In this document: in pieces, positions 5,134-60,087 of the stretch
How positions within the stretch are numbered: position 1 is the stretch's first letter
Layout: each line of letters begins with the position of its first letter
DNA from: a virus
Virus record (IMG/VR): IMGVR_UViG_3300045988_173323
Strand: one strand, 5' to 3'
Length of the DNA stretch: 60,087 nt
The notes under the pieces: model-generated
What the model was told of the DNA's origin: nothing
Seen by the model: only the letters and a program-made list of their open reading frames with translations
Databases searched by the model: none
Position numbers and translations under genes: made by a program

Positions 5134-5135
5134 AT

Positions 5136-6964: not shown

Positions 6965-7309
6965 CTATTTTACTATTTTAATTACTTTACCATGTTTTCC
7001 GCTCATTTTCATTTTCATAATAATCTTTCTAATTATTGCGTCTTTTCCATCATAAAAAAGTATAGCAAAATCAATATTATCTACCATTTTCTGAATTAAT
7101 TTATCTATATTGCGATCAAATATATATTCAATAGGAGCACCATTATTTTCTGCCCATATTTTTCCAATAGACTCCGAGAGCTTCTTCTCCGTATTCCCGC
7201 AAACAACAGTAAACAAGTAACACTGCGTTTCACAGATAAAATCTTCCATAGCTGCGGAGACTAGGCGATTATCCGCGAAACCGCGACTTCCAAGAATACT
7301 AATTCTCAT
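6965..7309 (-). CDS. DUF2493-like (SLOG/LOG-type Rossmann) phage protein
   Basis: The pattern MRISILGSRGFAD...TVVCG...W...P...LFYDGKD...GK.VKIV recalls the DUF2493 signature (MRVxVxGSRxF.D...VV.GGA...W...P...FPGG..GT...G..V). The call is by recall only. Confidence 0.45.
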   Translation of the reverse strand: MRISILGSRGFADNRLVSAAMEDFICETQCYLFTVVCGNTEKKLSESIGKIWAENNGAPIEYIFDRNIDKLIQKMVDNIDFAILFYDGKDAIIRKIIMKMKMSGKHGKVIKIVK

Positions 7310-23506: not shown

Positions 23507-26500
23507 ATGGCGGCTACAAATCGTATTGATTTTACAGTTGGCTTTAATACAGATCAAAGCGGTTTATCAAGTATTAAGAAGGCATTAGAAGAAATTCAAA
23601 AAATGACTTCTGGTGATTTGATGAGCTTAAATAAAGGAATGGATTTAAGTGAAGCCAATAGCAGATTATCTCAAATAAAAGAATCTGCTAGCCAAGTTCA
23701 AAAAGCGTTAGAAAAAGCTTTTAACGCGGATTTAGGAACATTAAATGTATCTAAATTTAACAATGAATTAAAAAATTTAGATATAAATAAAATTTACAAT
23801 GATTTTAATAGTGCGGGTTCGGCAGGACAAACCGCTTTTAAAAATATGACAACTCAGATTTTAACTACTAATATGCAGTTAAAACAAACTCATAGCTTCT
23901 TAGAGAATATGGCTACAACTCTATCCAATACTATTAAATGGAATATTGCATCTGGAGCCATGAATGCATTAACTAATAACGTTCAACAAGCAGTTAATTA
24001 TGTTGAAAAATTAGATACTTCATTAAATAATATTAGAATTGTAACTGGCAAATCTGCGGAAGAAATGCGTGATTTCGCGGAATCTGCGAGTCAAACCGCT
24101 CAAGAGCTATCCGCGAGTACAAGAGATATAACTGAAGGAGCTTTAATTTATTATCAACAGGGTGATACAGATGAAGATGCTCTTGCTAAAGCTGAGATTA
24201 CTCAGAAAACCGCGAATGTATCTCAGATTAGCTCAGAACAGGCTGCGGAATATTTAACTGCGGTTTGGAATGGTTATAAAGTAGCTAATGAAGCTGCGGC
24301 TGAAGGAATGGACGTTTATGAAAAATATGTAGACAAGTTAGCGGCTGTAGCAGCTACAACTGCGTCAGACTTAGCTGAATCTTCTATGGCTATTTCTAAA
24401 GTAGCTTCCGCAGCAAGTTCTATGGGCGTTGATTTTGACCAATTAAATGCTCAGATTGCGACTATTATTTCTGTTACCCGCCAAGCACCAGAATCAGTAG
24501 GTACAGCCCTAAAGACAATTTATGCTCGTATGGGTGATCTAGCTGTTGATGGTGTTGATGAATTTGGAGTTTCTCTTGGTGAAGTTTCTGGAAAGATGAA
24601 AACAATGGGCATTGACATCTTAGATGAGAATGGTCATCTAAAAGAGATGGGAAATGTTATTGAAGAAGTAGCAGGTAAGTGGAGTACTTGGACAGACGAA
24701 CAAAGACAAGCGGCAGCAGTTGCAATCGCAGGTAAGAGACAGTATAATAACTTAATTGCTTTATTTGATAACTGGGATATGTATACTGATGCTTTAGATA
24801 CTTCTAAAAATGCATTGGGAACTCTTGAAGAACAACAGGACATCTATTCTGAAAGAACAGAAGCTCATATCCAAAGAATGAGAACTACTTTCGAGGATTT
24901 ATATGATTCTTTATTAAAGCCAGAAGCCATTAATAAAGTTGTCGACGGAATTACTTTTGTTGTAGATAAAATTGCAACATTAGTTGACAATATCGGCGGT
25001 GGCAAGACTGTTCTTGCTGAGCTAGGATCTTTAGGTGTAAGAGTATTTAGTAAACAAATCGCTGGTGGTATTTCTACAACTATAGCTAATTTTAAAAATG
25101 TAAAATCTAATGCTGAACAACTTAATGCTCAATTAGAGATTTTACAACAGTATAAAGGATTATCTGCGTTAGATGAAGATACTAAAGAATTAGTAAATAT
25201 GAAGCAAGAGATTGTGGATTTAGGATCTGTTGCTACTACTGAACAACAGAACATTGCTAACGGTTTTATTGAACAAATAAATGCTTTGCAAAATCAAAAG
25301 AAACAGTTAGAAGAGAATGAGGAAGCTGCAAAAAATCTTTATAAGGCTTTAACTAATGAAGAATTAGACTTAGATAGCCTTAGAGGAAAGGGCGAAGAAG
25401 CAGAAAAAACAGATACATATAAAGAAGTTCAGAAGCAAGTAGCTGAGACTCAGAAGCAGTATAAAAGTTTGAATAAAGAAGCTTCTAATTATGCTGGGGC
25501 TTTGACTTTAGCTACTTTTAATCAAAGACAAGCTTCTAAAGATAGTTCAAAGCAAGAAGAGGCAATTAAATCTTATGAAGCTTTAACTATCGCTGTAAAA
25601 AAATATAATGATGAAGTAAAAAAAATAGTTTCTTCAAGTCCAGAAGTCGCAAGTGCTTATGAAAATTTTAATAAGAAATTAAAAGAGTATAGTGAACTCA
25701 CAGGAAATGCTGAAAAATCGGTAGGAGAATTAATTGCGACTTACCCAGAATTAAGCAAAGCTTTCAAAGAGGTAACAGAAGTAAGTAAAGATTATGCTAG
25801 CCAAGCGGCAAGTGATGCACAGAAGGTCATGAAAACTGCACAAGATGTCGCTGCAGGGATAGGGGAAAAAGTAAAAGAAAAATTAGATGAGTCTCGCTCT
25901 GCATGGAAAAGCTTTATAGATGATGTAAGAAATACTGCGGTTATTCAATCAGCCCTAGACATTGCGGGTTCTATTGGAGAAATAGGTTCTTCTATAGTTA
26001 GTTTAAAAGGAATATGGGATGTTTTTTCAGATGATTCTTTATCTATAACAGAAAAATTAGGACAATCATTTACTGTTTTGCTTTCTACTTTACCACTTCT
26101 CATAGATGGGATTCAAGGACTTCGAGCAGGTCTTATAACTTTGGCTCAAAATGCAATTCCAGCTTTAGCTGGCTCTTCTTTGACTGCGTGGGAAGCGATT
26201 GGAGCATTATTTTCAGCCTCTTGGATTGGTTGGGCTGCGGCGGCAGTAGGTGCGATTGCACTAGTAGTATTCGCTATAGATCATTTTACGGTAAGTGCAA
26301 AAGAGGCAAAAGAAGCTTTAGAGAGTCAATTTGAAGAGTATGAAAAAGCTCAACAGGAAGTAGATGAATTAAATTCTAAGTTAGAAACAACACAAGAAAG
26401 ATTAAAAGAATTATATCAAATTTCTCCAGATGAGCTTACTCTTGCACAAAAAGAGGAACTAAAAACCTTAGAAGCCCAAAATGCGGCGTTGACAACACAG

Positions 26501-29500
26501 CTTGAGCTAAGAAAGAAAGTTGCAAAAGCTGAGGAAAAGAAAACAGTAGAAGCCGCAGAACAAGCCGCAAAAAAAGACGCATATGGTAAAGAACTTGAGA
26601 CAGCATCGGTAGACGCGTCAGTAGATAGGAGCCAATTAGCAGAAGTATCTGGAATAAATATTGGAAATGGAAGGAAAGTTCAAGATATACTTCTTGATGA
26701 TTCTGTTGCTAAGTTTCAACTAGGCGATGAGAAAGCTTATGAGGAATATAAAGCTCAAGCAGAATATTCTATTTCCGAAATTAGAGATCTATTAGCGAAA
26801 GAGAATACTGGAATTAATTATGACCAGAGAGAAGCTTTAAAGGCTTATGTAAGTAATTTAGAATTCACTCTGTCTTCAGTAAATAAAAAATGGGAAAATT
26901 CTTCTGGTGAAGTTTCTAAAAGTTTAACAGACGCGTATAATAACGCTTTAAAACAGATTCCTCTGTTAGAAGAAGCTGGTTCAAAATATGTTGACTACTA
27001 TTATAATATTGTTGAACAATATTATAGAAAAACAGATACATTAGGTTTTGCTACTAAGCAAGCTTTCGGTGAAGCTTTAAGTGAAAATAAAGAAGCTTTT
27101 GATAAAATGAAAGCAGAGATAGAAAAAGAAGGCGGAATTGATGTATTATTAGCGGATGATGGTAAAAAGCTACGAAATGTTATAGGTAGTAATGCTTTTG
27201 AATCTTTAAAAGAATACTCTACTCAAACAGGACTTTCTTTAGAAATTTTATTAAAGAGTCTTGATGAGATTGATGCTAAATATGATGATATTAAAGATGG
27301 GGCATCTATTGCGGCTAATACAGAGAAAAAAGAAATTGAAGAATTAACAAAAAAACAAGAACAGTATCAAGAGGAATTAGATAAAAAATCTGTAATTAGT
27401 GAAATTTCTACTCAATTAGCTAGCGAAGGTAGCTTAGATAAATTAAGTAAAAGTAAAGAAGGAAAGGCTACTTTAGAGACTTTTAATCAGATGCTAGAGG
27501 AAACCGCAGGCATTTATAATAAAAATGTAAGTGCGGCTCAAGAGTTTGAAGAAGCTGCTGCTAGAGGCGTTCTTGGACAAATAGAATATTTAGAAGATTT
27601 AAGAGAAGCAGATTCTAATTATTATACTGAAGTTATCGAGTTAGAAAAACAAAAATTAGAAGCGGAATTAGATTCTAATAAAAAAATATTAGAAGGATAT
27701 GCACATAGAAAAACTGAATTAACTATGCATATCAATCAGCTAGAGGATATAAGAGAGAAAGAAGGTTCTCTTAGTAAAGAACAACTAGATGAACTTAGTA
27801 ATGCTCAAGTTGAATTGGAAGCAGTTACAGAAAAATATAATGAATATCAAAACGCTGTTTCAGATACAAAGAAAGAAATAGAGGATACCGATTGGGAATT
27901 AAAAATTGATTTAGCTGGTGCGGAAGAAATTTTAAGTATCGGTGATTCTATTTTAAGTGAATCTGATAAGATTAGAGAAGCGGCAATGATGATTGGTGAA
28001 GGATATGTTGTTGCGTCTGAGGATGCTAAACAGTTAGCAGAAGTTTTTCCAGAAATTATGGAAAATGCGGAAGTGTTAGCAGATGGACAAATTCAATTAA
28101 ATCAAGGTGTAGTTGAAGAAACTTTAACTGGACAGCAATCTATTCTTCATGGAGATGTAACAACCGCTTTATCTAGAATAGATAGTCAGGTTAAAATTTT
28201 AACTGCACAAAAAGAAGCGGCTGAGGCAGAGTTAGAATTATGGCAATCTGTATATCAAGGAAAAGTAGATATGGACTCTCAGGCTTTGGAAGCTATGGCG
28301 GGAGGACAGAAATCTTTTACTGAGTATTTGGTTGATTTAGGTGTTAAAGAATCTGATGCAGATAAAGCAGTTAAAGAAGCTATGGCGGGAAACTACGATG
28401 AGTTAGCTCGAATAGCAAAAGATGCTTCTATCAATATGGATCAAAACCTTAGTCAGGGTATTCAAGATGCAGCCAATAACTCAAAGACTAATTTAGGTGC
28501 TGTCGTTACTAACTTTATGGCTGTTATGAGAGCTGCTCAAGAAGCGGGAAAAGCTGCATCCGCGTCTATGAATGGAAAGGTAGCAGGAGAATACATTTCT
28601 CCAGATAGTCTCTCTGGCGGAGGTTGGTCACAGAATTTTACCGGAAAAACTCTGGACGCAAAGTTTAAAGGTGCTGAAAACAATATAACCACAACAACAA
28701 AAGAGTTTGCGGCAGATAAAATTAATGAAGCTAAAATAAGAATAAATAAGTATACAAAAGCAATATCTGAAATGGAGGCTTTAGCGTCAAGACTTCGTGA
28801 GAATGAAGCTAATTCTAATTTAGCTCTTGAAAGTGCAAAAGCAGGGACTGGTGGTTCAACGCCTTTTGAGAAAGATAAGAGCAGTAAAGGCGGAAAAGGT
28901 AGCGGAGGAAAAGGTGGTTCTTCATCAGATGCACAAGCTGACAAAATAGATTTATTGCAAGATGAATCTGAAGTATATCACGACATAGATCTTGAAATTA
29001 AAAATATCACAAGAGATTTAGATGCTTTACAGAAAAAACAAGAAAAGCTTACAGGTAAAGAATTAATTAAAAATCTTCAAGAGCAGTTAGACTTATTGGA
29101 AAAACAAAAGAAAGCTTATGGTGAAAAGATAGAAGTAGCCGAAATTCAGTCAGGAGCATATAAATCTGCATTAAAACAAGAAGGGGTTACTTTTGATGCA
29201 GATGGAAATATAACCAATTATTTTAATATTATGAAAACCAAGCTGGATAATGTCAATAAAATGATTACTAAATATAATGGCATGTCCAAAGCAGAGCAAA
29301 AGAAATATAAGCAAACGGTTGAAGATGCTAAAAAGGATTATGAGAATTTTAAAAAGATTCTTAGCAAATATGAAGACTTAAAAGCAGATGAAAAAGAAAT
29401 AAAAAAGCAACAGCAAGAGGCAGAAGATAAGGCTACAGAAGTAAGGATTAAGAAGTTTACCTTAAAAGTTGACTTAGCTCTTGATACGGCTCAAGCAGAG

Positions 29501-32038
29501 AGAGATTTTAATGCTTTTAAAAAGAAAGTTATTGATGGTATAAAAGATGACGATTTTTCGGGTCAAGTTAATGCTTTACTATCTAATTTTAGTTCATATG
29601 TAAAGCCAGATGGTACAGGTGAGATTCAAGCTTTAACAGATCAGCTTAATAAAACTAAGAGTGAAATTGAAATTATGAAAGCTGGTGGAAAATCAACTAT
29701 TTATGGAGATAATCTTGCTAAAGCTTATGAAGACTTAGAGAAATATGAAAAAAATGCGGAGACCGCGTTAGAAAACTATGCACAAATATCAAAGGATATT
29801 GAAGAGACTTACCTAAGTGCAATAGATAAAGCTCAAGAAAAACTAGATGAGCAATCAGAGCAATATGAATTTATATCTGATTTGATTGACCATGATAAAG
29901 ATGTAATTGGTTTAATCTATGGCGATAAAGCTTATTCTCAATTAGCTAAATATTATGAGATGCAAAGAAAAAATAATAATGACAATTTAGACTTTGCAAG
30001 AAAACAAGTAGAATTCTGGAAACAGAGAATGGATAACGAAGAAAAAGATTCCAAAGCTTGGAAAGAATATAAAGCTAATTATGAAAAAGCGGTTACTGAT
30101 TTAAACTCAAAAGTTAAGAGTTCTATTGAAGAAGTTATTGAAGAATATAAAAATACTATAAATAAAATCTTTGAAGACATTAACAAGAGATTAACTAACG
30201 GAAGCGGATTAGATTATGTTAAAGATCAATGGGATTTAATTAACAAAAATGCAGATATGTATTTGGATAGTATTAATTCTTCTTTTGAAATTCAAAAACT
30301 TCAAAATAAGTATTTAGATTCTATTGATAATACAAGTAGCTTATCTGCTCAAAAGAAATTAAATAACTTGATGAATGAGCAGATTGAAATGCTTAAAGCT
30401 AAAGAAAAGTTAACTCAATATGATGTAGATCGTGCTAATGCGTTATATGAAATAGCCTTAAAAGAAATTGCTTTACAAGATGCTCAAAAAAATAAGTCAA
30501 AAATGAGATTGAGACGTGATTCTCAAGGAAATTATAGTTATCAATATGTTTCTGATGAAGATAGTATAGCTCAAGCACAGCAAGAGCTATTAGAAGCTCA
30601 AAATTCTCTCTATAATTTGGATAAAGACAAGTATAAGAGTAATTTAGATGAAATCTATAGCACTTATTCTGAGTTCCAACAGAAATTATTAGAACTGTAT
30701 TCAGATACCACTCTTGCAGATGAAGAAAGAGAAGAAAAGAAAAAGTTATTAGCAGAACAATATGGCGAAATAATAAATAACTTAGTTGAACAAAATGAGC
30801 AAGTTAAGCAGAATCTCCAGGATACAACTTTCCAAGAATTGGCTAAAAAATATAATACCGATGTAGCTAACTTCCAAGGAATGTCAGATGAGGAAAAGAG
30901 AATCTTAATGGAGAGTATGATTCCGCAATGGAATTCAGGCGTTCAGCAAATGGCTGATAAATTTGCGGGAGAAGGCGGTTTTATTCCAACTTGTGAAAAT
31001 GCCTTTAAACAGCTAGATGAAGCTTTACTTACTTATAGAAATAACTTGAGTGAGACAAGCGAGCGTTCAGGGGTAGATTTTAACAAGATTGCTGAAGGAT
31101 ATGATATGAATATCCAAAAAGCTAAAGAACTTCTTGAGGAAAATGATAAGTTACTTGAAAAATACAAGGCTCAATTAGAAGCTGTTCAAGATGTACTTCA
31201 AGAAGTGAAACAGCTAGAAGAAGCTTATAGAGGTGTTGCGGCAGCTGCTATTTCTGCGGTTACAGAAGCTAATAAATTAAAGCAACAGAAGGATAAGGAA
31301 GCGAGAGAAGAAGCAGATAAAGATGCTGCTGGAAATGGCAAAAGCGGAGATAATAAAAAGAATAACAAAAGTAATAAAGGTGGAGGAAAGAATACAATCG
31401 TTGATGTCAAAGCGGATCCTTCTGATACTCCAGCAAGTGCAGTTGACATGGACGAAGGTAGTAAGAAATTTAAAGTTGGAGATAAGGTTAAATTACTAAA
31501 AGGAAAAAGATATTATTATACGTCTGAAGGAGCTGAACCTTCAGGAAATAGAGGAGCTGGACAGAATAAACCTGGTACGATTACTCAGATTGAAAAGGGA
31601 GCTAAAAAGCCTATTCATGTTCAGAGTAACGATGGTCCGTTTGGATGGCTTACAAAAGATGATATCAAGAAATTTGATACTGGTGGATATACTGGAGCAT
31701 GGAGTGGAAATGAAGGAAAAGTTGGTATTCTTCATCAGAAAGAGTTAGTCTTAAATAAAGAAGATACTAAAAATTTCTTATCTGCTATGAATGTTGTTAG
31801 AAGTTTAGATAGTGTTTTAGATACAATTAATGCATCTATGATGAATAGATTAGTTGGATTGTTAACTAAGACTACTACTTCTTTGAGCGGAATTTCCGCG
31901 TCTCAGGATTTAACTGTTGACCAGAAAGTTCAAATAGAAGCTTCTTTCCCAAATGTTCAAAACTCTGGAGAAATTGAAGAGGCATTTAAAAATTTAGTAA
32001 ATTATGCAAGTCAACATGCATATGACACTAAACGTTAG
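23507..32038 (+). CDS. tail tape measure protein (2843 aa)
   Basis: Extensive coiled coil. A central hydrophobic block reads LLSTLPLLIDGIQGL...AIALVVFAI. Near the C-terminus there is a Gly/Lys/Asn-rich linker, an about 70-aa SH3-like module (KVGDKVKLLKGKRYYY...GPFGWLTKDDI), then a typical TMP terminal block (GGYTGAWSGNEGKVGILHQKELVL). Confidence 0.85.
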   Translation: MAATNRIDFTVGFNTDQSGLSSIKKALEEIQKMTSGDLMSLNKGMDLSEANSRLSQIKESASQVQKALEKAFNADLGTLNVSKFNNELKNLDINKIYNDFNSAGSAGQTAFKNMTTQILTTNMQLKQTHSFLENMATTLSNTIKWNIASGAMNALTNNVQQAVNYVEKLDTSLNNIRIVTGKSAEEMRDFAESASQTAQELSASTRDITEGALIYYQQGDTDEDALAKAEITQKTANVSQISSEQAAEYLTAVWNGYKVANEAAAEGMDVYEKYVDKLAAVAATTASDLAESSMAISKVASAASSMGVDFDQLNAQIATIISVTRQAPESVGTALKTIYARMGDLAVDGVDEFGVSLGEVSGKMKTMGIDILDENGHLKEMGNVIEEVAGKWSTWTDEQRQAAAVAIAGKRQYNNLIALFDNWDMYTDALDTSKNALGTLEEQQDIYSERTEAHIQRMRTTFEDLYDSLLKPEAINKVVDGITFVVDKIATLVDNIGGGKTVLAELGSLGVRVFSKQIAGGISTTIANFKNVKSNAEQLNAQLEILQQYKGLSALDEDTKELVNMKQEIVDLGSVATTEQQNIANGFIEQINALQNQKKQLEENEEAAKNLYKALTNEELDLDSLRGKGEEAEKTDTYKEVQKQVAETQKQYKSLNKEASNYAGALTLATFNQRQASKDSSKQEEAIKSYEALTIAVKKYNDEVKKIVSSSPEVASAYENFNKKLKEYSELTGNAEKSVGELIATYPELSKAFKEVTEVSKDYASQAASDAQKVMKTAQDVAAGIGEKVKEKLDESRSAWKSFIDDVRNTAVIQSALDIAGSIGEIGSSIVSLKGIWDVFSDDSLSITEKLGQSFTVLLSTLPLLIDGIQGLRAGLITLAQNAIPALAGSSLTAWEAIGALFSASWIGWAAAAVGAIALVVFAIDHFTVSAKEAKEALESQFEEYEKAQQEVDELNSKLETTQERLKELYQISPDELTLAQKEELKTLEAQNAALTTQLELRKKVAKAEEKKTVEAAEQAAKKDAYGKELETASVDASVDRSQLAEVSGINIGNGRKVQDILLDDSVAKFQLGDEKAYEEYKAQAEYSISEIRDLLAKENTGINYDQREALKAYVSNLEFTLSSVNKKWENSSGEVSKSLTDAYNNALKQIPLLEEAGSKYVDYYYNIVEQYYRKTDTLGFATKQAFGEALSENKEAFDKMKAEIEKEGGIDVLLADDGKKLRNVIGSNAFESLKEYSTQTGLSLEILLKSLDEIDAKYDDIKDGASIAANTEKKEIEELTKKQEQYQEELDKKSVISEISTQLASEGSLDKLSKSKEGKATLETFNQMLEETAGIYNKNVSAAQEFEEAAARGVLGQIEYLEDLREADSNYYTEVIELEKQKLEAELDSNKKILEGYAHRKTELTMHINQLEDIREKEGSLSKEQLDELSNAQVELEAVTEKYNEYQNAVSDTKKEIEDTDWELKIDLAGAEEILSIGDSILSESDKIREAAMMIGEGYVVASEDAKQLAEVFPEIMENAEVLADGQIQLNQGVVEETLTGQQSILHGDVTTALSRIDSQVKILTAQKEAAEAELELWQSVYQGKVDMDSQALEAMAGGQKSFTEYLVDLGVKESDADKAVKEAMAGNYDELARIAKDASINMDQNLSQGIQDAANNSKTNLGAVVTNFMAVMRAAQEAGKAASASMNGKVAGEYISPDSLSGGGWSQNFTGKTLDAKFKGAENNITTTTKEFAADKINEAKIRINKYTKAISEMEALASRLRENEANSNLALESAKAGTGGSTPFEKDKSSKGGKGSGGKGGSSSDAQADKIDLLQDESEVYHDIDLEIKNITRDLDALQKKQEKLTGKELIKNLQEQLDLLEKQKKAYGEKIEVAEIQSGAYKSALKQEGVTFDADGNITNYFNIMKTKLDNVNKMITKYNGMSKAEQKKYKQTVEDAKKDYENFKKILSKYEDLKADEKEIKKQQQEAEDKATEVRIKKFTLKVDLALDTAQAERDFNAFKKKVIDGIKDDDFSGQVNALLSNFSSYVKPDGTGEIQALTDQLNKTKSEIEIMKAGGKSTIYGDNLAKAYEDLEKYEKNAETALENYAQISKDIEETYLSAIDKAQEKLDEQSEQYEFISDLIDHDKDVIGLIYGDKAYSQLAKYYEMQRKNNNDNLDFARKQVEFWKQRMDNEEKDSKAWKEYKANYEKAVTDLNSKVKSSIEEVIEEYKNTINKIFEDINKRLTNGSGLDYVKDQWDLINKNADMYLDSINSSFEIQKLQNKYLDSIDNTSSLSAQKKLNNLMNEQIEMLKAKEKLTQYDVDRANALYEIALKEIALQDAQKNKSKMRLRRDSQGNYSYQYVSDEDSIAQAQQELLEAQNSLYNLDKDKYKSNLDEIYSTYSEFQQKLLELYSDTTLADEEREEKKKLLAEQYGEIINNLVEQNEQVKQNLQDTTFQELAKKYNTDVANFQGMSDEEKRILMESMIPQWNSGVQQMADKFAGEGGFIPTCENAFKQLDEALLTYRNNLSETSERSGVDFNKIAEGYDMNIQKAKELLEENDKLLEKYKAQLEAVQDVLQEVKQLEEAYRGVAAAAISAVTEANKLKQQKDKEAREEADKDAAGNGKSGDNKKNNKSNKGGGKNTIVDVKADPSDTPASAVDMDEGSKKFKVGDKVKLLKGKRYYYTSEGAEPSGNRGAGQNKPGTITQIEKGAKKPIHVQSNDGPFGWLTKDDIKKFDTGGYTGAWSGNEGKVGILHQKELVLNKEDTKNFLSAMNVVRSLDSVLDTINASMMNRLVGLLTKTTTSLSGISASQDLTVDQKVQIEASFPNVQNSGEIEEAFKNLVNYASQHAYDTKR

Positions 32039-32132: not shown

Positions 32133-35100
32133 GTGTATAAGTTGAGTAATAACATAGAAAGCAATATTTGCAAAGCTATTGATATTATTGTAAAGAAAGC
32201 GGTAAATCAAGCTAGCTATGATAAAACAATTCAAGCAACAATTCTTTCATGTGTAGATGCTACTATTGGTAAATACAAAGTAAAGTATCAAGATAGCACT
32301 TTTTATGCGTACTCAGGAAACTCTGATACCACTTATACAGATGGTTCTAATGTCTATATACTAATTCCTGGTAACGATATGAAAAAAGATAAGACTATTT
32401 TAGGTACAACGAAAAAACTAGGTATTAACTATATAGCTACTTCAGAAGGAGAAGAGAGTTATGAACCTATTGGAAATAACTGTATTTCTTCATCTATTAC
32501 TTTTGGATTAAGTTCATATTCAAAAGTTGGACAAGAGAAAATCTTATATAGCAGAGATTTTCCAAATAAGAATTTAATAAAAGTAGACAGTGCATCTGCG
32601 GAAGAGTATATAAAACAATCTGCAAATTTAATTTGTAGCATGAAAGTAAGAACATCTTTACCGCCAGAGCAACAAAGTAGGGGTAATTATGGTATTATTT
32701 TTGCATTAGATTTTTTAGATAATGCTACTAATAAAACTATAACAAGAAATTATGTTATAGATGTGGATAAAATGACAGGTAACCCTTATAAACTAGTTTA
32801 TTCAACTAAACAATATGGTATTTTTGATATAGATGGAATAAATTTCAAATCTATAAAAGAAATTAAATTATTCTGTTATAATTTCCCGAATAGCAAGGAA
32901 AATTATATTGATGATATTTTTATAGAAGATTTGCAATTTTATGGAGTTGCAAAACTTAGCGAGGAGGATATTAATGGTTGTAGTTTAAGTATCATAACTC
33001 CGCAAGGTAATTTTTTCAATAAAAATGCGAATAAAAATGATTATAAAAAGTTACAGGCTCAAGTTAGAGTCAAAGGAAAAGTTATAGATAATAATTCTCA
33101 AAAACTTCCTTTCTATTGGTTTGTAGAAGATATTAATATTACATCGAAAAGTTTAGGTTATCATAAGTATGGCGGTCAGGGCTGGAGATGTTTAAATAAG
33201 TATAATATTATTCAAGACGCGAATGAAGAAAATGGAGAAGCCGCAATAGTAGAATATGTAGCTCTTGATTCTGAGTACAAGGTCTATTTTGAAGATGTAA
33301 TTGCGAAAGAGACTAAATATAAATGCGTTGTTATTTATGATGAGAGTGCTTTAGAAAAACAGATTGTGATTAAAAATTATAATTCTAATTATCAATTTTC
33401 ATTAGTATCTGATTTAGGAGAGCAGTTTTATTATGATGTTGGTTATCCTACTTTAACTTGTTTAATGAATGGAGAACAAATAAAAGATACGGGTAATTAT
33501 GAATTCTCTTGGATTACTGTTGATAGCATAGGCGGTTTTAGTAATCTTGAAGAGACGACCGCGGAAAATGAAGAATATAATAAGGCAGTTAAGAATAAAA
33601 AAAATTTAGAAAAAGCTATTAGTGATGGTACAAAGTATTACGAAGTTGTAAAGGATGAATTAGACAGATATAATGCTGTTATAGAGAAATATAATACAAT
33701 AACAAGAGTAGAAAAAGATAAGATTATTCATATAGATGTACGCTCTATTACACGAAATAAAACTTATAAATGTGCGGTATATTATATTAGAAATGGAAAT
33801 AAAACCTTCTTAGGTTCAGCATCAATCACTTTAACTAACTCCTTAGGCACAGAAGGTTCATATACTTTAGTTATTAACAATGGTATACAAACTTTTAAAT
33901 ATAATGAAAATGGAATTAGCCCAGCTTCTAAGTCATTGGAAAAGCCTATCATTTTACAAGCTTTAACTTTTACTATTTATAATAATTTAGGTCAGCCTAT
34001 TGATGATGAAGTGGCTAAGCACTGTAAAATTAAATGGATTGTTCCTTCTAAAAATACTATGTTAAAGATTTCATCAGATTATAATAATGTTAAAAAAGAT
34101 GAAGATTTAATCAATAATACAACAACATATAATAATATTACAACTTTGACATATGGTATTGAAGATAAGTATTCTGTTAATAAAGTTAGAAATAATATTC
34201 AATTAGCAGTAGAATATAAAGAGATGAATTTAATTGCGGAAACTAACTTTACTTTTGTTAAAGAAGGAGAGTCTGGAACAAATGGGACTGACATTGTATG
34301 TAAAATAGTTCCAAATGTTGAAGATGGAAAACCTATTCCAGTATATCCAATTCTTACTAAAAGTGGTGCTACTTATAGTTTTAATTTTGAGAAGAAAAAA
34401 AATGCAGAATCAAATTTTAAAATTGAAATATGGAAAGATGGAGAAATAGTTTTTAGCGGAAGTACTACGTCAGGTAATACGACAGTAGTTTGGAGCGTAT
34501 TAAAAAATAAATATGGACTTGATTATGGGAATTCTAGCGGTACAGATTATTCTTTTATACAAATTAATGCTCAAAATGGAAATGTTACTGAAGCGGTTAC
34601 TGGAAAAGAGCCAAAAGAGCCTTTGGCTTGGGGTCGCCTAGGAGTTGCTAATATTATAAAAGCTACAGTAAAATATGATGGAGTAACTTATTATGTTACT
34701 ATGCCAATCATAGTTGCGGAAATTTATGATTACAACTATAAAGTTAATTTAAAGGATTATACTGGTTTTAGGTATGTTATTTATAATGCGGATGGAAGGA
34801 AACCTAAATATGATAATGCTACTCCTTTTACTTTAGAAGTTAAGAAACGTATGCAAGAAGCTAATGGCTATGTGGATATTAGCACCAATTCAAAAACTAA
34901 TTATACATGGGATAGAAAAGGAAGCATTTTAGAATATCACCAGAGTTCTGGAACTAATGATTCAACTTGTTGGGAAGAAAAATCTTCTCTACATTTAATA
35001 GATATTAGTCCAGAAAACATTTCAATAAATCAGCATAGTTATAAACCTATTGATAATTATGATGGACAATGTGTAAATAATGGTATAGTGTGTACCATAA

Positions 35101-36746
35101 AAGATGAAAATAATAACAATAAAAAAGTTGCAGATATCTATATACCAGTACATTTATATTTGAATAGATTTAATAATGCGGCTATAAATGATTGGGATGG
35201 TAATAGTGTTAATGTAAATAGCAATGGCGGATTTATCCTATCCCCGCAAGTTGGAGCAGGAATAAAAGATAATAGTAATGCTTTTACAGGTATTGTTATG
35301 GGAAAAGTACAAGAAGCTAATCAGAATAATATTGAGGTAGGATTATTCGGATATAATAAAGGTCAAAGAAATATATTCTTAGACGCGGAAACGGGTAAAG
35401 CTATTTTTGGTGTTAATAATGGCGGACAAATTATTTTAGATCCTTCTGATGGAAAAGCTGAAATAAAGTCTGGAAATTATAAAGATGGAGTAGGTGGCAT
35501 GTTAATTGATTTAACTACGCCAGAAATTAAATTTGGGACAGGCTATTTTAGTGTTAATAGTAGTGGCTATTTAACAGCAAAAGGTGGAGGAAGTATTGCT
35601 GGATGGAATATTGGTGAAAATACTCTATCTAAAGGTAGTGTAATTTTAAGTTCAGACAATTCTGAACAAACTAACAAAGCTTTTAAAGTGGGAAATGTTT
35701 TTAGTGTAGATTATAATGGATTTTTAGTAGCTCAACAAGCAACCATAGGTAGTGGAACAGCCAAAATTACTGTGGGTATGAATCAAACAAAAGCATACAG
35801 TGCTATTTATAGTGGGGATAAAAATGGATTACAAGTAAAGGAAAAAGGCTTTTACTTAGGAACAAATGGAATTGGGCTTGGAACGACCGAAAAAGTAAAA
35901 AGTAAAATAGTAAGCAAATTTCAAGTAGATGATGAAGGAAATTTTTATGCCGCTTCAGGATGTATTGGTTTTGGAAAGGATCCTTTAGAAATAACAAGTA
36001 ATGGTTTGTGTAAAGGTAAAACAACCTATAATGATAATAACGAAGGAGTTTATTTAGGGTCGAATGGAATTGGATTAGGTGCGAAGAATTTTACAGTTAA
36101 TGCTGCTGGATATTTAACTGCAAAGAGCGGAAAAATTGGAGGCTGGGAAATTAGTGACTCTAGTTTAGTAGGAACAGAGAAGAAAAAAGATAAGGAAGAA
36201 AAGAAAATAACTTTAAATCCAGCAACAGGCATAAATTTTAATGATCTTTTTACAGTTAATCAAAATGGATACTTAACTGCAAAAAGCGGAGAGATTGGAG
36301 GCTGTACTATAACAGGTAGTGGCATCTCTGGCTCTACTAAAGGAGGAGCATCTTGGAGCATACAAGGAGATGGCACAGCTAGCTTTACTAATGTATTAAT
36401 AAATGGAAAGTCAATTATATCAGCAGGTACTCAAATTGGCACGGAATATGATAGTAATGGAAATGTTTCAAAACAATCAGATTTGCCTAAGTATATAGGA
36501 AGTCAATCTGGGGGAGCTTTGTCATCTAATTTAGGTAATAATGATTATGTAAAAAATAGAGCTTCAGAATCAGATCAATATGAGGTAGGTTGGTTTTTAG
36601 GAATTGTACAAATAGACAAAATATCTCTTGATGTAAAAAATAAAACTGCATCATTATGGTATAAACGGATGCCTTTTTTAAGTAAAGGATCAGTGTCAAG
36701 CAGTGATGCCCATGGATTAGCTTTTGATTATATAGGAGAAAAATAA
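32133..36746 (+). CDS. large tail fibre / distal tail structural protein (1537 aa) with repeated GYLTAKxGxIGGW and G(F/V)YLGxNGIGLG motifs
   Basis: Its size and position after the tape measure gene; the C-terminal third carries three diverged repeats. Confidence 0.6.
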   Translation: MYKLSNNIESNICKAIDIIVKKAVNQASYDKTIQATILSCVDATIGKYKVKYQDSTFYAYSGNSDTTYTDGSNVYILIPGNDMKKDKTILGTTKKLGINYIATSEGEESYEPIGNNCISSSITFGLSSYSKVGQEKILYSRDFPNKNLIKVDSASAEEYIKQSANLICSMKVRTSLPPEQQSRGNYGIIFALDFLDNATNKTITRNYVIDVDKMTGNPYKLVYSTKQYGIFDIDGINFKSIKEIKLFCYNFPNSKENYIDDIFIEDLQFYGVAKLSEEDINGCSLSIITPQGNFFNKNANKNDYKKLQAQVRVKGKVIDNNSQKLPFYWFVEDINITSKSLGYHKYGGQGWRCLNKYNIIQDANEENGEAAIVEYVALDSEYKVYFEDVIAKETKYKCVVIYDESALEKQIVIKNYNSNYQFSLVSDLGEQFYYDVGYPTLTCLMNGEQIKDTGNYEFSWITVDSIGGFSNLEETTAENEEYNKAVKNKKNLEKAISDGTKYYEVVKDELDRYNAVIEKYNTITRVEKDKIIHIDVRSITRNKTYKCAVYYIRNGNKTFLGSASITLTNSLGTEGSYTLVINNGIQTFKYNENGISPASKSLEKPIILQALTFTIYNNLGQPIDDEVAKHCKIKWIVPSKNTMLKISSDYNNVKKDEDLINNTTTYNNITTLTYGIEDKYSVNKVRNNIQLAVEYKEMNLIAETNFTFVKEGESGTNGTDIVCKIVPNVEDGKPIPVYPILTKSGATYSFNFEKKKNAESNFKIEIWKDGEIVFSGSTTSGNTTVVWSVLKNKYGLDYGNSSGTDYSFIQINAQNGNVTEAVTGKEPKEPLAWGRLGVANIIKATVKYDGVTYYVTMPIIVAEIYDYNYKVNLKDYTGFRYVIYNADGRKPKYDNATPFTLEVKKRMQEANGYVDISTNSKTNYTWDRKGSILEYHQSSGTNDSTCWEEKSSLHLIDISPENISINQHSYKPIDNYDGQCVNNGIVCTIKDENNNNKKVADIYIPVHLYLNRFNNAAINDWDGNSVNVNSNGGFILSPQVGAGIKDNSNAFTGIVMGKVQEANQNNIEVGLFGYNKGQRNIFLDAETGKAIFGVNNGGQIILDPSDGKAEIKSGNYKDGVGGMLIDLTTPEIKFGTGYFSVNSSGYLTAKGGGSIAGWNIGENTLSKGSVILSSDNSEQTNKAFKVGNVFSVDYNGFLVAQQATIGSGTAKITVGMNQTKAYSAIYSGDKNGLQVKEKGFYLGTNGIGLGTTEKVKSKIVSKFQVDDEGNFYAASGCIGFGKDPLEITSNGLCKGKTTYNDNNEGVYLGSNGIGLGAKNFTVNAAGYLTAKSGKIGGWEISDSSLVGTEKKKDKEEKKITLNPATGINFNDLFTVNQNGYLTAKSGEIGGCTITGSGISGSTKGGASWSIQGDGTASFTNVLINGKSIISAGTQIGTEYDSNGNVSKQSDLPKYIGSQSGGALSSNLGNNDYVKNRASESDQYEVGWFLGIVQIDKISLDVKNKTASLWYKRMPFLSKGSVSSSDAHGLAFDYIGEK
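35564..36325 (+). repeat. three diverged about 60-bp intragenic repeats encoding the GYLTAK(G/S)G.I(A/G)G(W/C) motif
   Basis: The DNA units are at about 35564-35625, 36108-36165 and 36266-36325; their similarity was seen directly. Confidence 0.55.
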
Positions 36747-54802: not shown

Positions 54803-55393
54803 TTATTGTCCATGTATAAAATCTGCAATAGGTTCAAAAGAGTCAAACATACTAGGAGCATAATCAGATTCATTATAAAAAGTTATATATTCAAAATTAA
54901 TGTCTGAAAAATCTCTTTCGTCAGCAAGAAATCTTCGACAAATTTCTCTGCAATCTGGGTTATGTTCTCTTCTTAAAGCTCTTTTTAATCTTTCTTTTCC
55001 TGGTGCTTCTATTAAAACTGGTAGTACCTCTATTCTTTCATCTTTCAATAATTGCCTAATCCCTGAGATACTAAAAACACCAATATTTATTTTATCTTTA
55101 TCTAACTCTTGGATAGAAGTGCCATATAGCCATTTTTTAAAATAAACCGCATCTATTATATCTTTATTGCGAACCCGTCTTTCAAAATCATCACGATATA
55201 GAAAATAATAATCTATGCCATCTCTTTCGTATGCTCTTGGTGATCTAGTAGTACAACTAATAATTTCTTTTATTTCTGAATGATTGTAACACATTCGTTT
55301 TTTTATAGTATCTTTTCCTGCACCGCTCTTTCCGAACAGTGCAAGAACTTTATATTTTGACATTTTATTCTCCTTCCATACCATATCTAACAT
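54803..55393 (-). CDS. gmk: guanylate kinase-family nucleoside monophosphate kinase
   Basis: The P-loop GKSGAGKDT, the TTRSPRAYERDGIDYYF guanylate-kinase signature (TTRxPRxGExDGxDYxF), and the YGTS motif. Confidence 0.75.
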   Translation of the reverse strand: MLDMVWKENKMSKYKVLALFGKSGAGKDTIKKRMCYNHSEIKEIISCTTRSPRAYERDGIDYYFLYRDDFERRVRNKDIIDAVYFKKWLYGTSIQELDKDKINIGVFSISGIRQLLKDERIEVLPVLIEAPGKERLKRALRREHNPDCREICRRFLADERDFSDINFEYITFYNESDYAPSMFDSFEPIADFIHGQ

Positions 55394-56776
55394 GCTCTAG
55401 TTTCATATCTGAACCATTGACGTCAATAATCTTGTAGAGCTGATGGGTAGGGGTATGTTTATACGATTTAGTCTGAAATGTATCTCCACGCCTAAACCCA
55501 GTACACATTACTTTTGTTCCTCTTTGAAACCAGCCTTTTTCCATAACTTTTTTAGTTCCATCTTCTTGCTTTTCAGAAATTTGTCTCCCAAACATAGCAA
55601 AGTAATCTTTTGTAAATTTTACATTAACAACTCCAGAAGTTGTTAATAATGATATTGAAGAACGAGCATCATTTTTACTGATTACAGTGCCAATGATTTT
55701 ATAAGTCTTATAAATAGGGATTTCTTTTCCATTTCTTTTGAAAAAATAATCTACAACAGGCTCTTCGGGTAATTTAGAAAAATCTGAAATTCCATACTTT
55801 AAAGTATCAATATTTATTAATTCATGTGGATGATAATAAAAACATAAGCTTTCCATTTCCCACGCGGAAATATTTCCTTTAGCATATTTATTCCAAGAGT
55901 CAAGAAATAAAGCCTCATTAAATTCTTTTAATACTGTCTGTTGATTCTCTTTAAGCCAATCTCTAGCTCTATCCATGCCTTTTTGATACTTTTTATCCCA
56001 TTTGTTTTGTAAAATACAAACGCATCCGTTTATCACTTCAAGGTCTTCCATATCGTATCTTTGATTGTAGAATTTTTCACAAGCATCATCAAAGACATAA
56101 TATTTTCCAACTTTTTTCTCAGTTTTTAGATACTTATTAAAGAAAAATAATCTTTTCATACTATCTAAAGAAGGTGGAATTAAGTCTTTTTGAATTAAAC
56201 CATTAAAGTTTTGTAGCGTTAATTTCTTTTTTGGTTCACTAACAACAGACAGATAATATATCATTACAAGCACTCTTGGTTCAACATTTAATTCTTTTGC
56301 CCATTCTAATTCCAGTTTATCAAAAGCTCCGCTCTTTATTAAGGAAATCATTGCAGATTTATTTAAAGGACATCTTATCATAAAGTCTTTAATGCTTTTA
56401 TATGGTCTACCAGAAAAAATCTGCTCAATAATTGGTGCACCTACATTACTCAATGCTTTCATTCCAAAAAGAATTTCGTTGTTTTCAACATCTGGCTTAA
56501 AGCTATAGTCAGATTTATTTATATCAACTAAAGAAATTTTTATTCCTCTTGATAAAATATCTCCAATAGCCTTAGCTATTTTACTATAATCCGTAGATTT
56601 TTCTTTCTTTTTACTTTCTTCTGTTTCTTCTTCATTTTCAATATTATCTTCTTCTAAGGCTCCACTATTTACAATTAAACACGCGGTATTCCAATAGATA
56701 GGATTCCATCTTGTGGCTATGTATATAGTTTGAAATCCTATGAAAGAGTAAGCCAGGGCATGTATGCATAATTTAA
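55365..56776 (-). CDS. dnaE: DNA polymerase III alpha (DnaE-type) C-terminal exon (HhH + OB-fold region), downstream of the intron
   Basis: The translation upstream of the track start continues in frame as HALAYSFIGFQTIYIATRWNPIYWNTA...DINKSDYSF...EILFGM-KALSNVGAPIIEQI, matching the DnaE ...SHAxAYSxIGxQ... fingers and HhH region. The 5' limit at 56776 is the estimated 3' splice site (+/- a few nt). My reading of the displayed sequence near 56460 differed by 1 nt from the ORF track, and I trust the track. Confidence 0.7.
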
Positions 56777-56777
56777 A

Positions 56778-57992
56778 ATTACTGACTATTTTTTACAGAC
56801 GTTGTAGTGAGATTTTGGCTTTTCTCTTGTCTGCACACTATTTCCCAAAACGTATCAATAGTTTCAGTACTCCCCGTCTAACCAGGGATAGTCGATACAA
56901 CATTTTTCTTTTAATAGATTTATTTATTATCTCTAAGAGGGTATTTATATTTTTCTTTTTTATGAGAACGTCCTGCGTTAATATTTTTAATTGTTGCATA
57001 GCTTTTATTCCATTTTTTTGCGATATCTTTTAAAGATAAATCTGTTTCTAAAATATCTTTTATAATACCTTGAATCCAGATTTCATTTTTAGCTTTATTA
57101 CCACCTTTATCACAAAGAGGGTAGTTATCCTTATCACTATAAAAATATTTTCCTGTATTTATCATAGATAAAAATCCAGCTGATTTAATTCCAAAATCTT
57201 CTTGAATTGTTTTATATTTTTCTCCGCTTTTAATTCTATCTTTTATTTCTCTAATTTCTTTTTGAGAAAAGCGGCTTTTAGAATTTTTCTTTAAAGGATA
57301 ATCAAACTCTTCATTAAAATAATTTGTTCCAGTATTTATATTAACTAAAAACGTTCTTTTTAACTTAGGAAAATAAATTTTTTCAATATCATCATATTCT
57401 TCATCATTCATTAGACGATTTTGGATATCAATAATTTCTTCTTTTTTAAAGAGTTTAGATCGGTTTAATTTTTCTTCATACGTTAAAGGTTTTCTTTTAT
57501 ATCCTTGTCCGCCTAAAGTAATATTATATCCATTTTCATCTTTTAAAGAATGATAATATTGAATAAAATAAATTTCTCTTTCGTCAATATATTCTTGAGA
57601 TTCTCCATCAGCAATCTCTTCAAGAATATCAAAATTAAAATTATCCCAACCATATTTTCTTATGGCTGCGTGAAATGGCAAATTATAGCCAGAAGTTTTT
57701 TCATTAAAAGACTCACTTTTATGTCCATTTTTTCTTTTTTGAACATTATTAGTTTGTCCGATATAAATTTTACCATTTGTTTTATTTGTAAATTTATAAA
57801 TATAGTACATAATATTCTCCTTATACATTGTTTTACTATTCTCATGTATAACTGAAAAATACTATACCTCTATTAAAGAAATTTGTCACGAGATTTAACC
57901 CTCGTTAGCAATTAAAACCATATTTGCCAAATATGTAAATGTTTTAATTACCCCACTGATAAGTGGTTAAGTGTGTAAGCACCATTCACACA
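56778..57992 (-). mobile_element. group I intron (about 1.2 kb) in dnaE carrying a GIY-YIG homing endonuclease ORF
   Basis: dnaE reading frames lie on both sides. The insertion falls inside the conserved GY(S/G)F-NxS-HAxAY polymerase motif. In-frame stops follow exon 1 at 57986. A free-standing HEG with its own RBS lies inside. Flanking blocks of about 180 and 140 nt are compatible with a group I core. The boundaries are approximate. Confidence 0.7.
56920..57810 (-). CDS. GIY-YIG homing endonuclease (intron-encoded), 296 aa from MYYIYKFTN
   Basis: The classic N-terminal YYIYKFTNKTNGKIYIGQT...R...H...N...E GIY-YIG module is present. The C-terminal two-thirds looks like a DNA-binding extension. 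An AAGGAGA RBS precedes the second ATG; the track start at 57828 is 6 codons upstream. Confidence 0.8.
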   Translation of the reverse strand: MYYIYKFTNKTNGKIYIGQTNNVQKRKNGHKSESFNEKTSGYNLPFHAAIRKYGWDNFNFDILEEIADGESQEYIDEREIYFIQYYHSLKDENGYNITLGGQGYKRKPLTYEEKLNRSKLFKKEEIIDIQNRLMNDEEYDDIEKIYFPKLKRTFLVNINTGTNYFNEEFDYPLKKNSKSRFSQKEIREIKDRIKSGEKYKTIQEDFGIKSAGFLSMINTGKYFYSDKDNYPLCDKGGNKAKNEIWIQGIIKDILETDLSLKDIAKKWNKSYATIKNINAGRSHKKEKYKYPLRDNK

Positions 57993-60087
57993 ATGCTAAA
58001 GCTATATCCCATCTGCGGACCTATGCCATATTTCCATACATAGTCTCCGAGTTCTTTTCTTTTAGCTTGTTCAATAACCTTCTTTTTCAATTCTGGAATT
58101 TTACTCATTTGTTTTTTACCAACAATTTTTCTCGCGGTGTTGGCTTCAGATAACTTAAAACCGCAAATATCCTTATCCATTAACATACTCATTAATTGTT
58201 CTTGACTTGGCGGAACACCATAAGACTTTAAGAAATAAGGTTCTAATGTTTTCATCTCTTGAGGAGATAACCCCTCTCTTCTCATTTCTTGATACCAAAG
58301 ATCAATATTTTTTTTATATCTTACATATTTTTCCATTGGCGTTTCTTGACCTTTTTCACTAGTCATAAGTCTCATTAATCCATTAGCATCTGACATTTCA
58401 ATTATTGAGGCTGGCTTAATTTTTTTTGCAGCCTGACTGCCTACATCGCTATCAAATTGAAAAATATTTAAAACTGAGTTGTTTTGCAGTGCTTTCCAAC
58501 ATTTTTTATCTTCGATAGGTAAAACACTTGGATGAAAATATTTTTCATACACTTCTTTTAAAGATAAATCTGATTCAATTTCATTATTAGCCTGTAGTAA
58601 TTTAATTGTTTCTGCTAATTTATCCTGGACTTCAGTTACTAAGAAGTCATATTTTGTCATACCTGCTGCTTCGCACATATGAAGATCCCATTGCGTAATA
58701 ATTTCTCCTTTAGGAGTCCGCATAAAACATCCAAATTCATATGGGTCTTCATCAAAAAGGATTACTCCAGAAGCATGAGAACTCCTTTTGTTTACTAACC
58801 CTTCAATAGCAATCATAATATCTAATAAGCCAGGATATTTTTCTACCTCATTAGTAAACATCTTAATAGGCTTTCTATCTTTATCTGGGTTACCATTAAT
58901 GGCATCTGATAAAGACCATAAAAAACCTCTTTCACTTGGAATTAAAGAAGATAAAAATTGAGCAGTGTCAACATCAATTCCGTCTGGATACTCTTCACTT
59001 CTATATCCGCGACAAGCAGTTAAAATAGTTGATCGAGTACCTTCAGTTCCAAAAGTGGCTATCAACGTACATCCTAAATTTTTTCGAGATAAAACATCGA
59101 TATCTTTTTTAAAATTTTTTCCGCGTTCTTCCTTTATTTTCTTTAAAATTAAAGGTCTTTTACTTGGACTTAAATCTAAATCTATATCTCCAAGCTCTAT
59201 ACGCTCTTTATTTAAATATCTCCAGAAAGGAAGCTCCCATTCAATCGGATCTAGTTGAGTAATTCCCATTAAGTAATGATTTAATCCAGAGCAAGAACTT
59301 CCTCTTCCTGCACCTACCATACTTCCGCAATCCCAAAATAAATCAACATAATGTTGTAAAGTATTAGGATAACTAAACATATTAGTTTCAAGTTTTTTAC
59401 TAATAGTATCTTTAATATCAGCTTCTTCTTCTAATCGAGATAAATAAGTATTGTTATATTTATTTATTTCTTGGAGTTTTTGCAAACAAGTATTAACCCA
59501 ATATCTGTCTTGAATATCATCACTTAATAATAATTTATGTAAAGTAGGATATTCCTTTAAAGAGTTATCTTTAGGGTAATCTCTAACTTTAACTTTTGGA
59601 ATTGTTTGTTTATGTTTTAAATTATAATTTTCAATTTTAGAATAAATTTCTAAAGAATTATTACATAATTCTTCATAATTTAACTCAGAAGGCTTTAAAT
59701 TTTCAATTATTTCTTCTTCTGATTGCAAGTAACTATATTCATAAAACTCATCAACTTCTCGTTCTCCACCCTTAGAATTTAAGTAAGATTTATGAACAAA
59801 TCTATCTTCTTTTTTTAAATAATGAGCATCTGTGCCAAGTACCATTTTTATATTAAAACATCTAGCAATAGATAAAAGTCTCTTATTTACCATTACTTGA
59901 TCTTTACTTTGTCCTGGAGCACACTCAATATAGAAATCTTGTCCAAATAAAGACTTGTTCCATAAAATAAAATTAACTATTCTATTATGAGCTTCCCCCG
60001 CAGATTCAACATCTTTCATCTGCTCTGCTAAAATTAATTGTTTAGTTAAAGTGCTTAATTCTCCGCCCAAACATGCTGTTGTTGCAA
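57993..60087 (-). CDS. dnaE: DNA polymerase III alpha (DnaE-type) N-terminal exon (PHP domain + polymerase core), truncated by the window end
   Basis: The PHP motif GTDAHY and the palm/fingers region are present, ending ...GIGPQMGYSF immediately before the intron. The ORF remains open at 60070-60087, so the start lies beyond the window. Confidence 0.8.

Follow-up and report, generated by a model that had tools for sequence, protein, structure and literature searches.

A 60,087-nt stretch of viral DNA (IMG/VR record IMGVR_UViG_3300045988_173323; hereafter the window) carries on its minus strand a dnaE gene whose coding sequence is interrupted by an insert that is very probably a mobile group I intron; a gene for a GIY-YIG homing endonuclease is looped out of its P6 helix. 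Mobile group I introns that encode a GIY-YIG nuclease and lie in phage replication genes are ordinary and familiar elements; the ribozyme core of this one is a variant that is missed by the standard Rfam model and is, as far as could be found, apparently undescribed. Here we describe the anatomy of the element, the covariation of its helices, and its presence or absence at a conserved target in related viral genomes. An earlier interpretation made without database searches (the sequence-only reading) had placed a group I intron inside the GYxF...HAxAY motif of dnaE, a proposal that is now backed by covariation, by sister introns that match the Rfam group I model RF00028, and by an intron-less allele in a viral contig designated L179. 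The group I assignment rests on this family-level evidence rather than on a match of the window to the Rfam model.

dnaE Is Interrupted within a Conserved Motif

The upstream dnaE open reading frame (ORF) ends ...KYGIGPQMGYSFSIV at 57986, reading ...GYSFSIV, and its product matches Pfam DNA_pol3_alpha (2e-38) and DNA_pol3_finger (3e-23). The frame reopens downstream as ...LCIHALAYSFIGFQTIY (also given as ...IHALAYSFIGFQTIY) and extends to 55365, encoding an HHH_6 (HhH) domain (3e-18). The ORFs and Pfam matches confirm that dnaE is split, that a GIY-YIG gene lies between its halves, and that the frame resumes at IHALAYSF, all as described in the sequence-only reading; the start coordinate given there, 57992, is exactly the first intron base, and the intron extends 11 nt beyond the end coordinate given there, 56778, to 56767. 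At least 10 viral contigs have dnaE split at this very site by an insert with a homologous ORF, and this recurrence, together with the existence of a near-identical intron-less allele, indicates that the arrangement is not due to chance.

The insertion lies in the codon following GYSFS. Its 5′ splice site was set by the U·G rule for P1, and its 3′ splice site is the sole G-terminated one that restores the motif. Predicted ligation of the exon 1 end, ...UUUAGCAU, to the start of exon 2 (AGCAU-CAUACA) gives GYSFS-I-IHALAYS within GYxF...HAxAY (restored reading ...GYSFSIIHALAYS...), which is the product that had been proposed. The boundary was fixed at 57992..56767 because a terminal G is required, and this choice gives AUC (Ile) where L179 has AUU (Ile). 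In every dnaE relative, exactly one G-terminated 3′ site restores [GS][YF]xFxxxHxxxY, the relatives inserted in a TOPRIM (topoisomerase-type) gene restore EGDSA, and the homologous introns end ...AAUAAUG or ...AAUUAUG.

The dnaE gene of L179 aligns with the predicted spliced window gene without a gap, at 97.5% identity over 3479 nt, and it is excision of exactly 1226 nt from the window that produces this fit. The two genes differ by 88 substitutions, mostly synonymous, with 13 amino acid changes in 1159 residues. At the insertion site, L179 reads ...AGCAT^TATACAT..., the uninterrupted target being ...GGATATAGCTTTAGCAT^TATACATGCTCTGGCTTAC... (also given as ...GGATATAGCTTTAGCATTATACATGCTCTGGCTTAC...). 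The 80 best related dnaE loci are all uninterrupted at the window's insertion site, so that the intron is sporadic, as a mobile element should be, and L179 and these loci together show that the conserved target occurs both with and without the element. Exon 2 bases +1 (56766) and +10 (56757) are C in the window and T in L179, both changes being synonymous; co-conversion or target immunity could have left them there, a sample of two being too few for a test.

A gene can also be broken by a homing endonuclease gene in such a way that its halves are translated separately and reassemble as polypeptides with no RNA splicing, as is reportedly the case for nrdA and mobE of Aeromonas phage Aeh1. The physical split of dnaE, the free-reading endonuclease gene between its halves, and flanks that RF00028 does not recognize would all fit such an arrangement, yet we consider it very improbable here. 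Between the preceding stop and ATG 56462, which lies 101 codons past the junction, the frame has no ATG, GTG, or TTG; the downstream half therefore cannot be translated alone with its HALAYS motif, and a separate C-terminal protein would lack 101 residues that include it. Genes in pieces would also leave without explanation ~320 nt of conserved noncoding flank, extensive covariation of its helices, a guide that tracks the exon at each site, and copies of the insert in dnaE that have no ORF at all (L158 and L161).

Removal at the protein level, by an intein or by a split intein of the "fractured gene" kind, in which an endonuclease gene lies between split inteins (PMC2677866), has a negligible probability, even though replication proteins including DnaE are classic intein hosts (PMC4760082). 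The stop-free continuous frame that, according to the sequence-only reading, would point to an intein was not seen: two codons beyond the junction the exon frame meets TGA, and the insert is out of frame. Pfam finds just GIY-YIG and a weak helix-turn-helix (HTH) match in the ORF, with no intein blocks, and the exon ends directly abut the conserved motif, leaving no room for intein halves.

Covariation Supports Most Helices of the Predicted Ribozyme

We collected 31 unique relatives with the window's P4 element and aligned 23 of them (alignment A1) after removal of the ORF and the P6 tip. The structure scored for covariation was written from the window row of A1, with slid structures and 500 shuffles as controls. 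Across the whole structure, 88.9% of the cells form a standard pair, and the covariation score of 0.521 compares with 0.152 for the best slid control; none of the 500 shuffles reached 0.521. Coordinates of all elements are collected in Table 1.

P1 is 100% paired in the 23 sequences, with four of its five pairs covarying and an invariant U·G at the 5′ splice site, and it is present in 31 of 31 unique relatives in 10 different exon/guide combinations. The guide tracks the host site (for example, AGCAU/GUGCU, AGCGU/GCGCU, CGCGU/GCGCG, CAGGU/GCCUG, GGGUU/GACCC, and AGCCU/GGGCU), including the sites in thyX (CUGGU/GCCAG) and in the TOPRIM gene (AGGGU/GCCCU). The adjoining P10 strand is paired with the start of exon 2 at a mean of 3.95 of 5 positions, against 3.12 ± 0.14 in 2000 shuffles; P10 of the window consists of three contiguous pairs, running from the junction, and one more. 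Contiguity of P10 with the P1 guide is typical of group I introns.

The 5′ strand of P3 comes 2 nt after P1, with no P2 between them, and P3 is 94% paired, with five of six pairs covarying. Two hairpins, which we call hpA and hpB, separate P3 from J3/4. The hpA stem is 98.6% paired (3/3 pairs covary), and the outer stem of hpB is 92% paired (9/9 pairs covary). P4 is 100% paired and invariant, with 0 covarying pairs, and P6 is 79% paired, with all 13 pairs covarying. The (U)AUCA of the hpA loop is complementary to UGAU of the P7.2 loop and both loops are invariant; judging from this complementarity, hpA probably forms a kissing contact with the conserved P7.2 loop. An unconstrained minimum free energy fold of the ORF-less relative L158, an intron of ~265 nt, yields P1, P3, hpA, hpB, P4, P7.1, P7.2, and P8, and the fold of a window mini-construct has z = −4.6.

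Three other pairings were considered and rejected. Pairing of GUAUCGA, just 5′ of P7, with UUGAUAC was dropped because UUGAUAC is the loop of the covarying P7.2 stem in the family. A P3 5′ strand beside J3/4, as in the T4 td intron, finds no complementarity there, the covarying partner lying directly after P1. A GC/GC extension of P3 has the wrong strand polarity.

That the insert is instead a group II intron is suggested by little more than intron bases 2-6, GUGUG, which resemble the group II 5′ consensus, and we regard it as vanishingly improbable. The insert encodes neither a reverse transcriptase nor a maturase, its 3′ end is AUG and not AY, and a search with all Rfam families returned no group II family, even at E ≤ 10, whereas P7, P7.1, and P7.2 are common to the window RNA, T4 td, and the RF00028-positive sisters.

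Table 1. Coordinates of the split dnaE gene, the probable group I intron, and the elements within it
Feature	Coordinates	Strand	Description
dnaE exon 1	57993..60087	-	Open frame from window end 60087 (runs off window end); last base U57993
dnaE exon 2	55365..56766	-	Begins CAUACAUGCC, encoding (I)IHALAYSF...
Group I intron (very probable)	56767..57992	-	1226 nt; 5′ UGUGUG, 3′ AUUAUG; omega-G at 56767
P1 and guide	57978..57997	-	Exon AGCAU (57997-57993) pairs with GUGCU (57982-57978)
P10 strand	57987-57983	-	GAAUG, immediately 5′ of P1 guide strand
P3 5′ strand	57970..57975	-	CACACU; pairs with AGUGUG 56839-56834
hpA	57966-57953	-	CCAC-UUAUCA-GUGG; hairpin between P3 and J3/4 (two-hairpin region 57910..57966)
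hpB	57949-57910	-	Second hairpin between P3 and J3/4
J3/4 and P4	57888..57909	-	J3/4 GCUAA; P4 ACGAG/CUCGU, closed by 8-nt loop GGUUAAAU
P6 5′ strand	57869..57881	-	UUUCUUUAAUAGA; pairs with 56918-56905 around ORF
Promoter-like site	57861..57889	-	GTGACA-17-TATAGT, upstream of endonuclease gene; 10/12 positions match
GIY-YIG ORF	57828..56920	-	Pfam GIY-YIG 9e-11
Endonuclease gene	56920..57810	-	296 aa plus stop; entirely in P6 loop
P6 3′ strand	56905..56918	-	UCUAUUAAAAGAAA; starts 1 nt past endonuclease stop codon
Catalytic 3′ half	56784..56893	-	P7, P7.1, P7.2, P3′, P8, J8/7, P7′
P7	5′ 56893-56888; 3′ 56789-56784	-	GACUAU/AUAGUC; 100% paired, invariant
P7.1	56887-56872	-	100% paired, 5/5 pairs covary
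P7.2	56867-56845	-	Loop CUAUUGAUACG; 90% paired, 5/5 covary (5-pair block), sixth A-U pair invariant
P8	56833-56796	-	92% paired, 5/5 pairs covary; followed by J8/7
P9 hairpin	56767..56781	-	UAAUUUUAAAUUA, then U and terminal G (omega-G 56767)

P5 Is Absent and the Rfam Group I Model Misses the Intron

Several observations weigh against the assignment of the insert to group I. P5, a core helix, cannot be formed in the window intron. RF00028, the model against which the sequence-only reading had suggested checking the flanks, gives no match to the window either at its gathering threshold of 50 bits or, over 56300-58300, at E ≤ 10, and two ORF-bearing controls still reach 40.3 bits (T4 td) and 35.7 bits (T4 nrdB), so that the ORF alone is not the cause of the miss. 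Alignment A1 was partly assembled by hand, with the ORF and P6 tip taken out; covariation is silent on P4, P7, and the proposed kissing loops, since all of these are invariant; and alignment alone leaves the 5′ boundary uncertain by 1 nt (AGCAU|U). The P1-P9 core that the sequence-only reading expected of the flanks is present as P1, P3, P4, P6, P7, P8, and P9, with P2 and P5 both missing.

The absence of P5 is seen as a clean 22-column gap (alignment A3) where td, Enterococcus phage EF1, and RF00028-positive relatives have the helix, and in the P4-P5-P6 domain of the window P4 and P6 are present with P5 replaced by the A-rich 8-nt loop of P4. The GGxAAA and AU bases found on either side of P5 in sister introns are retained in this loop, which on that account might still furnish the J4/5 adenosines for contact with the P1 wobble pair. 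We attribute the failure of RF00028 on the window to the absence of P5 combined with the two extra hairpins between P3 and J3/4. At E ≤ 10 the model also misses the ORF-less, P5-less dnaE copies of L158 and L161, and it fails on every P5-less copy tested.

The P5-less P4 element, ACGAG/CUCGU with the loop GGU(U/A)AAAU, is identical in 69 viral loci. Copies of the P5-less form occur in dnaE, thyX, the TOPRIM gene, and a gene with the exon end ...RRTCGYIG, which presumably resembles NrdD. Bacterial and archaeal representative genomes contain only three matches to the P5-less motif, all of them metagenome-assembled. In one, L261 (CACYVR010000001.1, from a metagenome-assembled genome labeled "uncultured Methanobrevibacter sp."), the element is at 5135-5156 of a 139-kb contig that may come from a phage and have been binned wrongly, or from a virus of an archaeon. 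In the literature available for searching, we found no description of P5-less group I introns or of phage dnaE introns, which is weak evidence of novelty, and the term "dnaE" is absent from a 2014 review on phage introns (PMC3984707).

Loss of P5 may have ended self-splicing, leaving either an intron that depends on a phage or host protein or a decaying one in a nonfunctional gene. Apart from the missing helix itself, such an outcome would be in keeping with the small size of the P4-P6 domain in ORF-less L158, only ~45 nt, and with the failure of RF00028 on the P5-less copies. Set against it are the conservation of the P5-less form across the 69 viral loci, in several essential genes whose exons are intact, and the near-invariance of the 8-nt P4 loop, which suggests that the loop is functional. 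Decay is in addition at odds with the mostly synonymous divergence of the window dnaE from its intron-less allele. Overall we judge dependence or decay to be unlikely; a P5-less RNA that needs a protein helper is nonetheless a live alternative, which the present data do not separate from self-splicing.

The Intron Encodes a GIY-YIG Endonuclease

The real start codon of the endonuclease is the second ATG of the ORF, at 57810, with a spacer of 6 nt between it and the upstream AAGGAG (57822-57817); this start agrees with the homologs, whose N termini begin MYYIYKF.... The complete GIY-YIG gene with its own ribosome-binding site that the sequence-only reading described is therefore present. The protein scores 72.7 bits against TIGR01453, "group I intron endonuclease" (cut-off 56.05), and 8e-41 against PHROG 7168. 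The I-TevI catalytic domain (1MK0) aligns to residues 4-98, with the YIG, Arg (KR), Glu (ERE), and Asn (GYN) motifs kept. The C-terminal half (residues ~104-296, window 56920-57500) consists of three tandem ~55-aa repeats that are 30-35% identical, each ending IN.G...YPL; from their HTH-like look these are probably DNA-binding modules.

A promoter-like site lies upstream of the endonuclease gene (Table 1), its −35 element overlapping the conserved GUGACAAAU that comes after P4. Such sites are no more numerous in the region than in shuffles. At the equivalent position, homologs L007 and L024 carry the perfect sequence TTGACA-17-TATAAT, and together these sites suggest that the endonuclease may be transcribed independently of dnaE. 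As a candidate for an I-TevI-style CNNNG cleavage motif we considered CGCAG, 21-25 nt upstream of the insertion site, and rejected it, since it is not conserved (some homologs at this site have CGCAA).

These features suggest how the intron might splice and spread. Within the pre-mRNA, AGCAU at the end of exon 1 would pair with the guide GUGCU to form P1, placing U·G at the splice site; free guanosine bound in P7 would attack after U57993, the terminal G56767 would then occupy the guanosine site, and P10 (GAAUG with CAU.C) would align exon 2 for the predicted ligation. The 296-aa enzyme, expressed from its own ribosome-binding site and probably its own promoter, would cut intron-less dnaE of co-infecting phages near the motif, and repair from the intron-bearing copy would spread the intron.

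Related Introns Occupy Five Positions in One dnaE Motif

GACUAU...ACUAUUGAUACG is common to the window, EF1, and an Enterocloster phage insert, and a scan of viral contigs finds this motif at 120 loci or more. In the 3′ half of this family the order is the 5′ strand of P7, covarying P7.1, GAGUA, covarying P7.2 with the loop CUAUUGAUACG, GAAAU, P3′, P8, and AAGAUAGUC. Among ORF-less members of the family, L094 scores 52.9 bits against RF00028 over the motif, and a second intron in L161 scores 57.8 bits; both have the same hpA, P7.1, and P7.2 loop as the window intron. The catalytic 3′ half of the window intron also occurs within RF00028-positive matches.

Insertions of the family fall at five points, all within 17 nt of the dnaE motif G1-Y2-x3-F4-x5-x6-x7-H8: codon 2, phase 1 (EF1); codon 4, phase 2 (L075 and L099); codon 6, phase 2 (the window and at least 10 others); codon 7, phase 1 (L068 and L155); and after codon 7 (L157 and L161). 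Each of the five has matching P1 and P10. The endonucleases at the codon 4, codon 6, and codon 7 (phase 1) sites are full-length homologs with 47-92% identity.

Reading these observations together, we tentatively propose, with confidence that falls a little short of even, that a widespread natural clade of group I introns, in phage and phage-like contigs that are mostly metagenomic, has lost P5 and been reduced to a minimal P4-P6 domain. Its peripheral hairpins would have moved to between P3 and J3/4, one of them kissing the P7.2 loop, and it would still splice from essential genes (dnaE, thyX, TOPRIM, and the NrdD-like ...RTCGY... gene) while being invisible to the Rfam group I model. By retuning its guide, the same pairing of ribozyme and endonuclease would have spread to five positions, all within 17 nt of a single DnaE motif.

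Among cultured phages, the best dnaE matches are from Enterococcus and SPbeta-type Bacillus phages, at 42-45% amino acid identity. Megablast of the locus against cultured phages gave no match, and blastn of the 3′ core against them gave only a 49-nt match, in Enterococcus phage VRE9_3, whose dnaE is uninterrupted and reads QMGYSFSILHTIGY. This P7-to-P7.2 match (PP680569.1, 136603-136651) adjoins an annotated homing endonuclease gene far from dnaE and is probably part of another unannotated intron of the window's family.

Several relatives carry more than one intron. The dnaE gene of L161 has three group I introns (4224-4440 and 4960-5192, minus strand, plus ~3280-3560), two of which are RF00028-positive (57.8 and 48.8 bits); the third is P5-less, ORF-less, and missed by RF00028. 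In L040 (3736-3772 and 3970-4220), and likewise in L046 and L121, an intron with the family motif is followed ~200-900 nt on by a second, RF00028-positive group I intron, and these are intron arrays within one gene.

Comparison with Known Phage Introns

Related to the T4 td type, the window ribozyme differs from it by the absence of P5 and P2 and by two extra hairpins. In both td (group IA2, encoding I-TevI) and the window, a GIY-YIG gene is looped out of P6 of an intron in a nucleotide- or DNA-metabolism gene, P1 has a U·G pair, P4 follows the pattern ACG.GG/C.CGU, P7 is GACUAU/AUAGUC, and P7.1, GAGUA, P7.2, GAAA, P3′, and P8 come in the same order. The presence of P7.1 and P7.2 between P7 and P3′ is what is expected of subgroup IA2 (td/Twort type), whereas the P2 between P1 and P3 and the P3 5′ strand beside J3/4 that are usual in td and nrdB are not found. 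Unlike the window intron, td has P5 and a P2 hairpin and reaches 40 bits on RF00028; the window intron has hpA and hpB in addition, as well as a conserved P7.2 loop of 11 nt. The endonucleases differ as well, the C-terminal repeats of the window enzyme not aligning to I-TevI beyond residue 98.

Enterococcus phage EF1/EF5 (MF001358) has an insertion in the same motif of the same gene as the window, shares hpA, P7.1, and the P7.2 loop, and encodes the GIY-YIG protein that is the best phage-database match to the window endonuclease (39% identity). The EF1 insertion is 13 nt upstream (GGG U|AU, the G|Y codon) and, in contrast to that of the window, keeps a normal P5. The EF1 dnaE gene (L001) is in three pieces, separated by insertions at 1016-1840 and 2966-3955; one insertion carries an HNH gene, annotated "Phage intron," and the other a GIY-YIG gene, annotated as no more than a hypothetical protein flanked by two DNA polymerase III alpha CDSs. 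The third dnaE piece likewise bears a hypothetical-protein annotation.

In phages SPO1, SP82, Bastille, and Twort, too, conserved motifs of replication genes are interrupted by mobile group I introns that encode homing endonucleases, and related introns occur at nearby but different positions. Their host polymerases are of family A, in contrast to the DnaE type interrupted here, and the SPO1-group enzymes are HNH nickases.

The practical import of the element is modest. Genes interrupted in this way will be miscalled by annotators as two dnaE genes and a "hypothetical protein," as has already happened in EF1. The nuclease is a candidate for a new site-specific enzyme directed at a conserved polymerase motif, and the five insertion points within 17 nt form a natural series in which the joint adaptation of guide and nuclease to a target could be studied. 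Should the RNA prove active, a smaller natural P4-P6 domain would be defined, the parts of J4/5 and P5 required for docking P1 could be tested, and searches with the Rfam model would be under-counting phage group I introns.

Two further observations concern other sequences. In L093, an unrelated viral contig, positions 6982-7044 (minus strand) match the Rfam GP20-b RNA (RF03003) at 54.3 bits, above the gathering score. On the plus strand of the window, two very long ORFs of 2843 and 1537 aa lie at 23507-32038 and 32133-36746, in the structural region.

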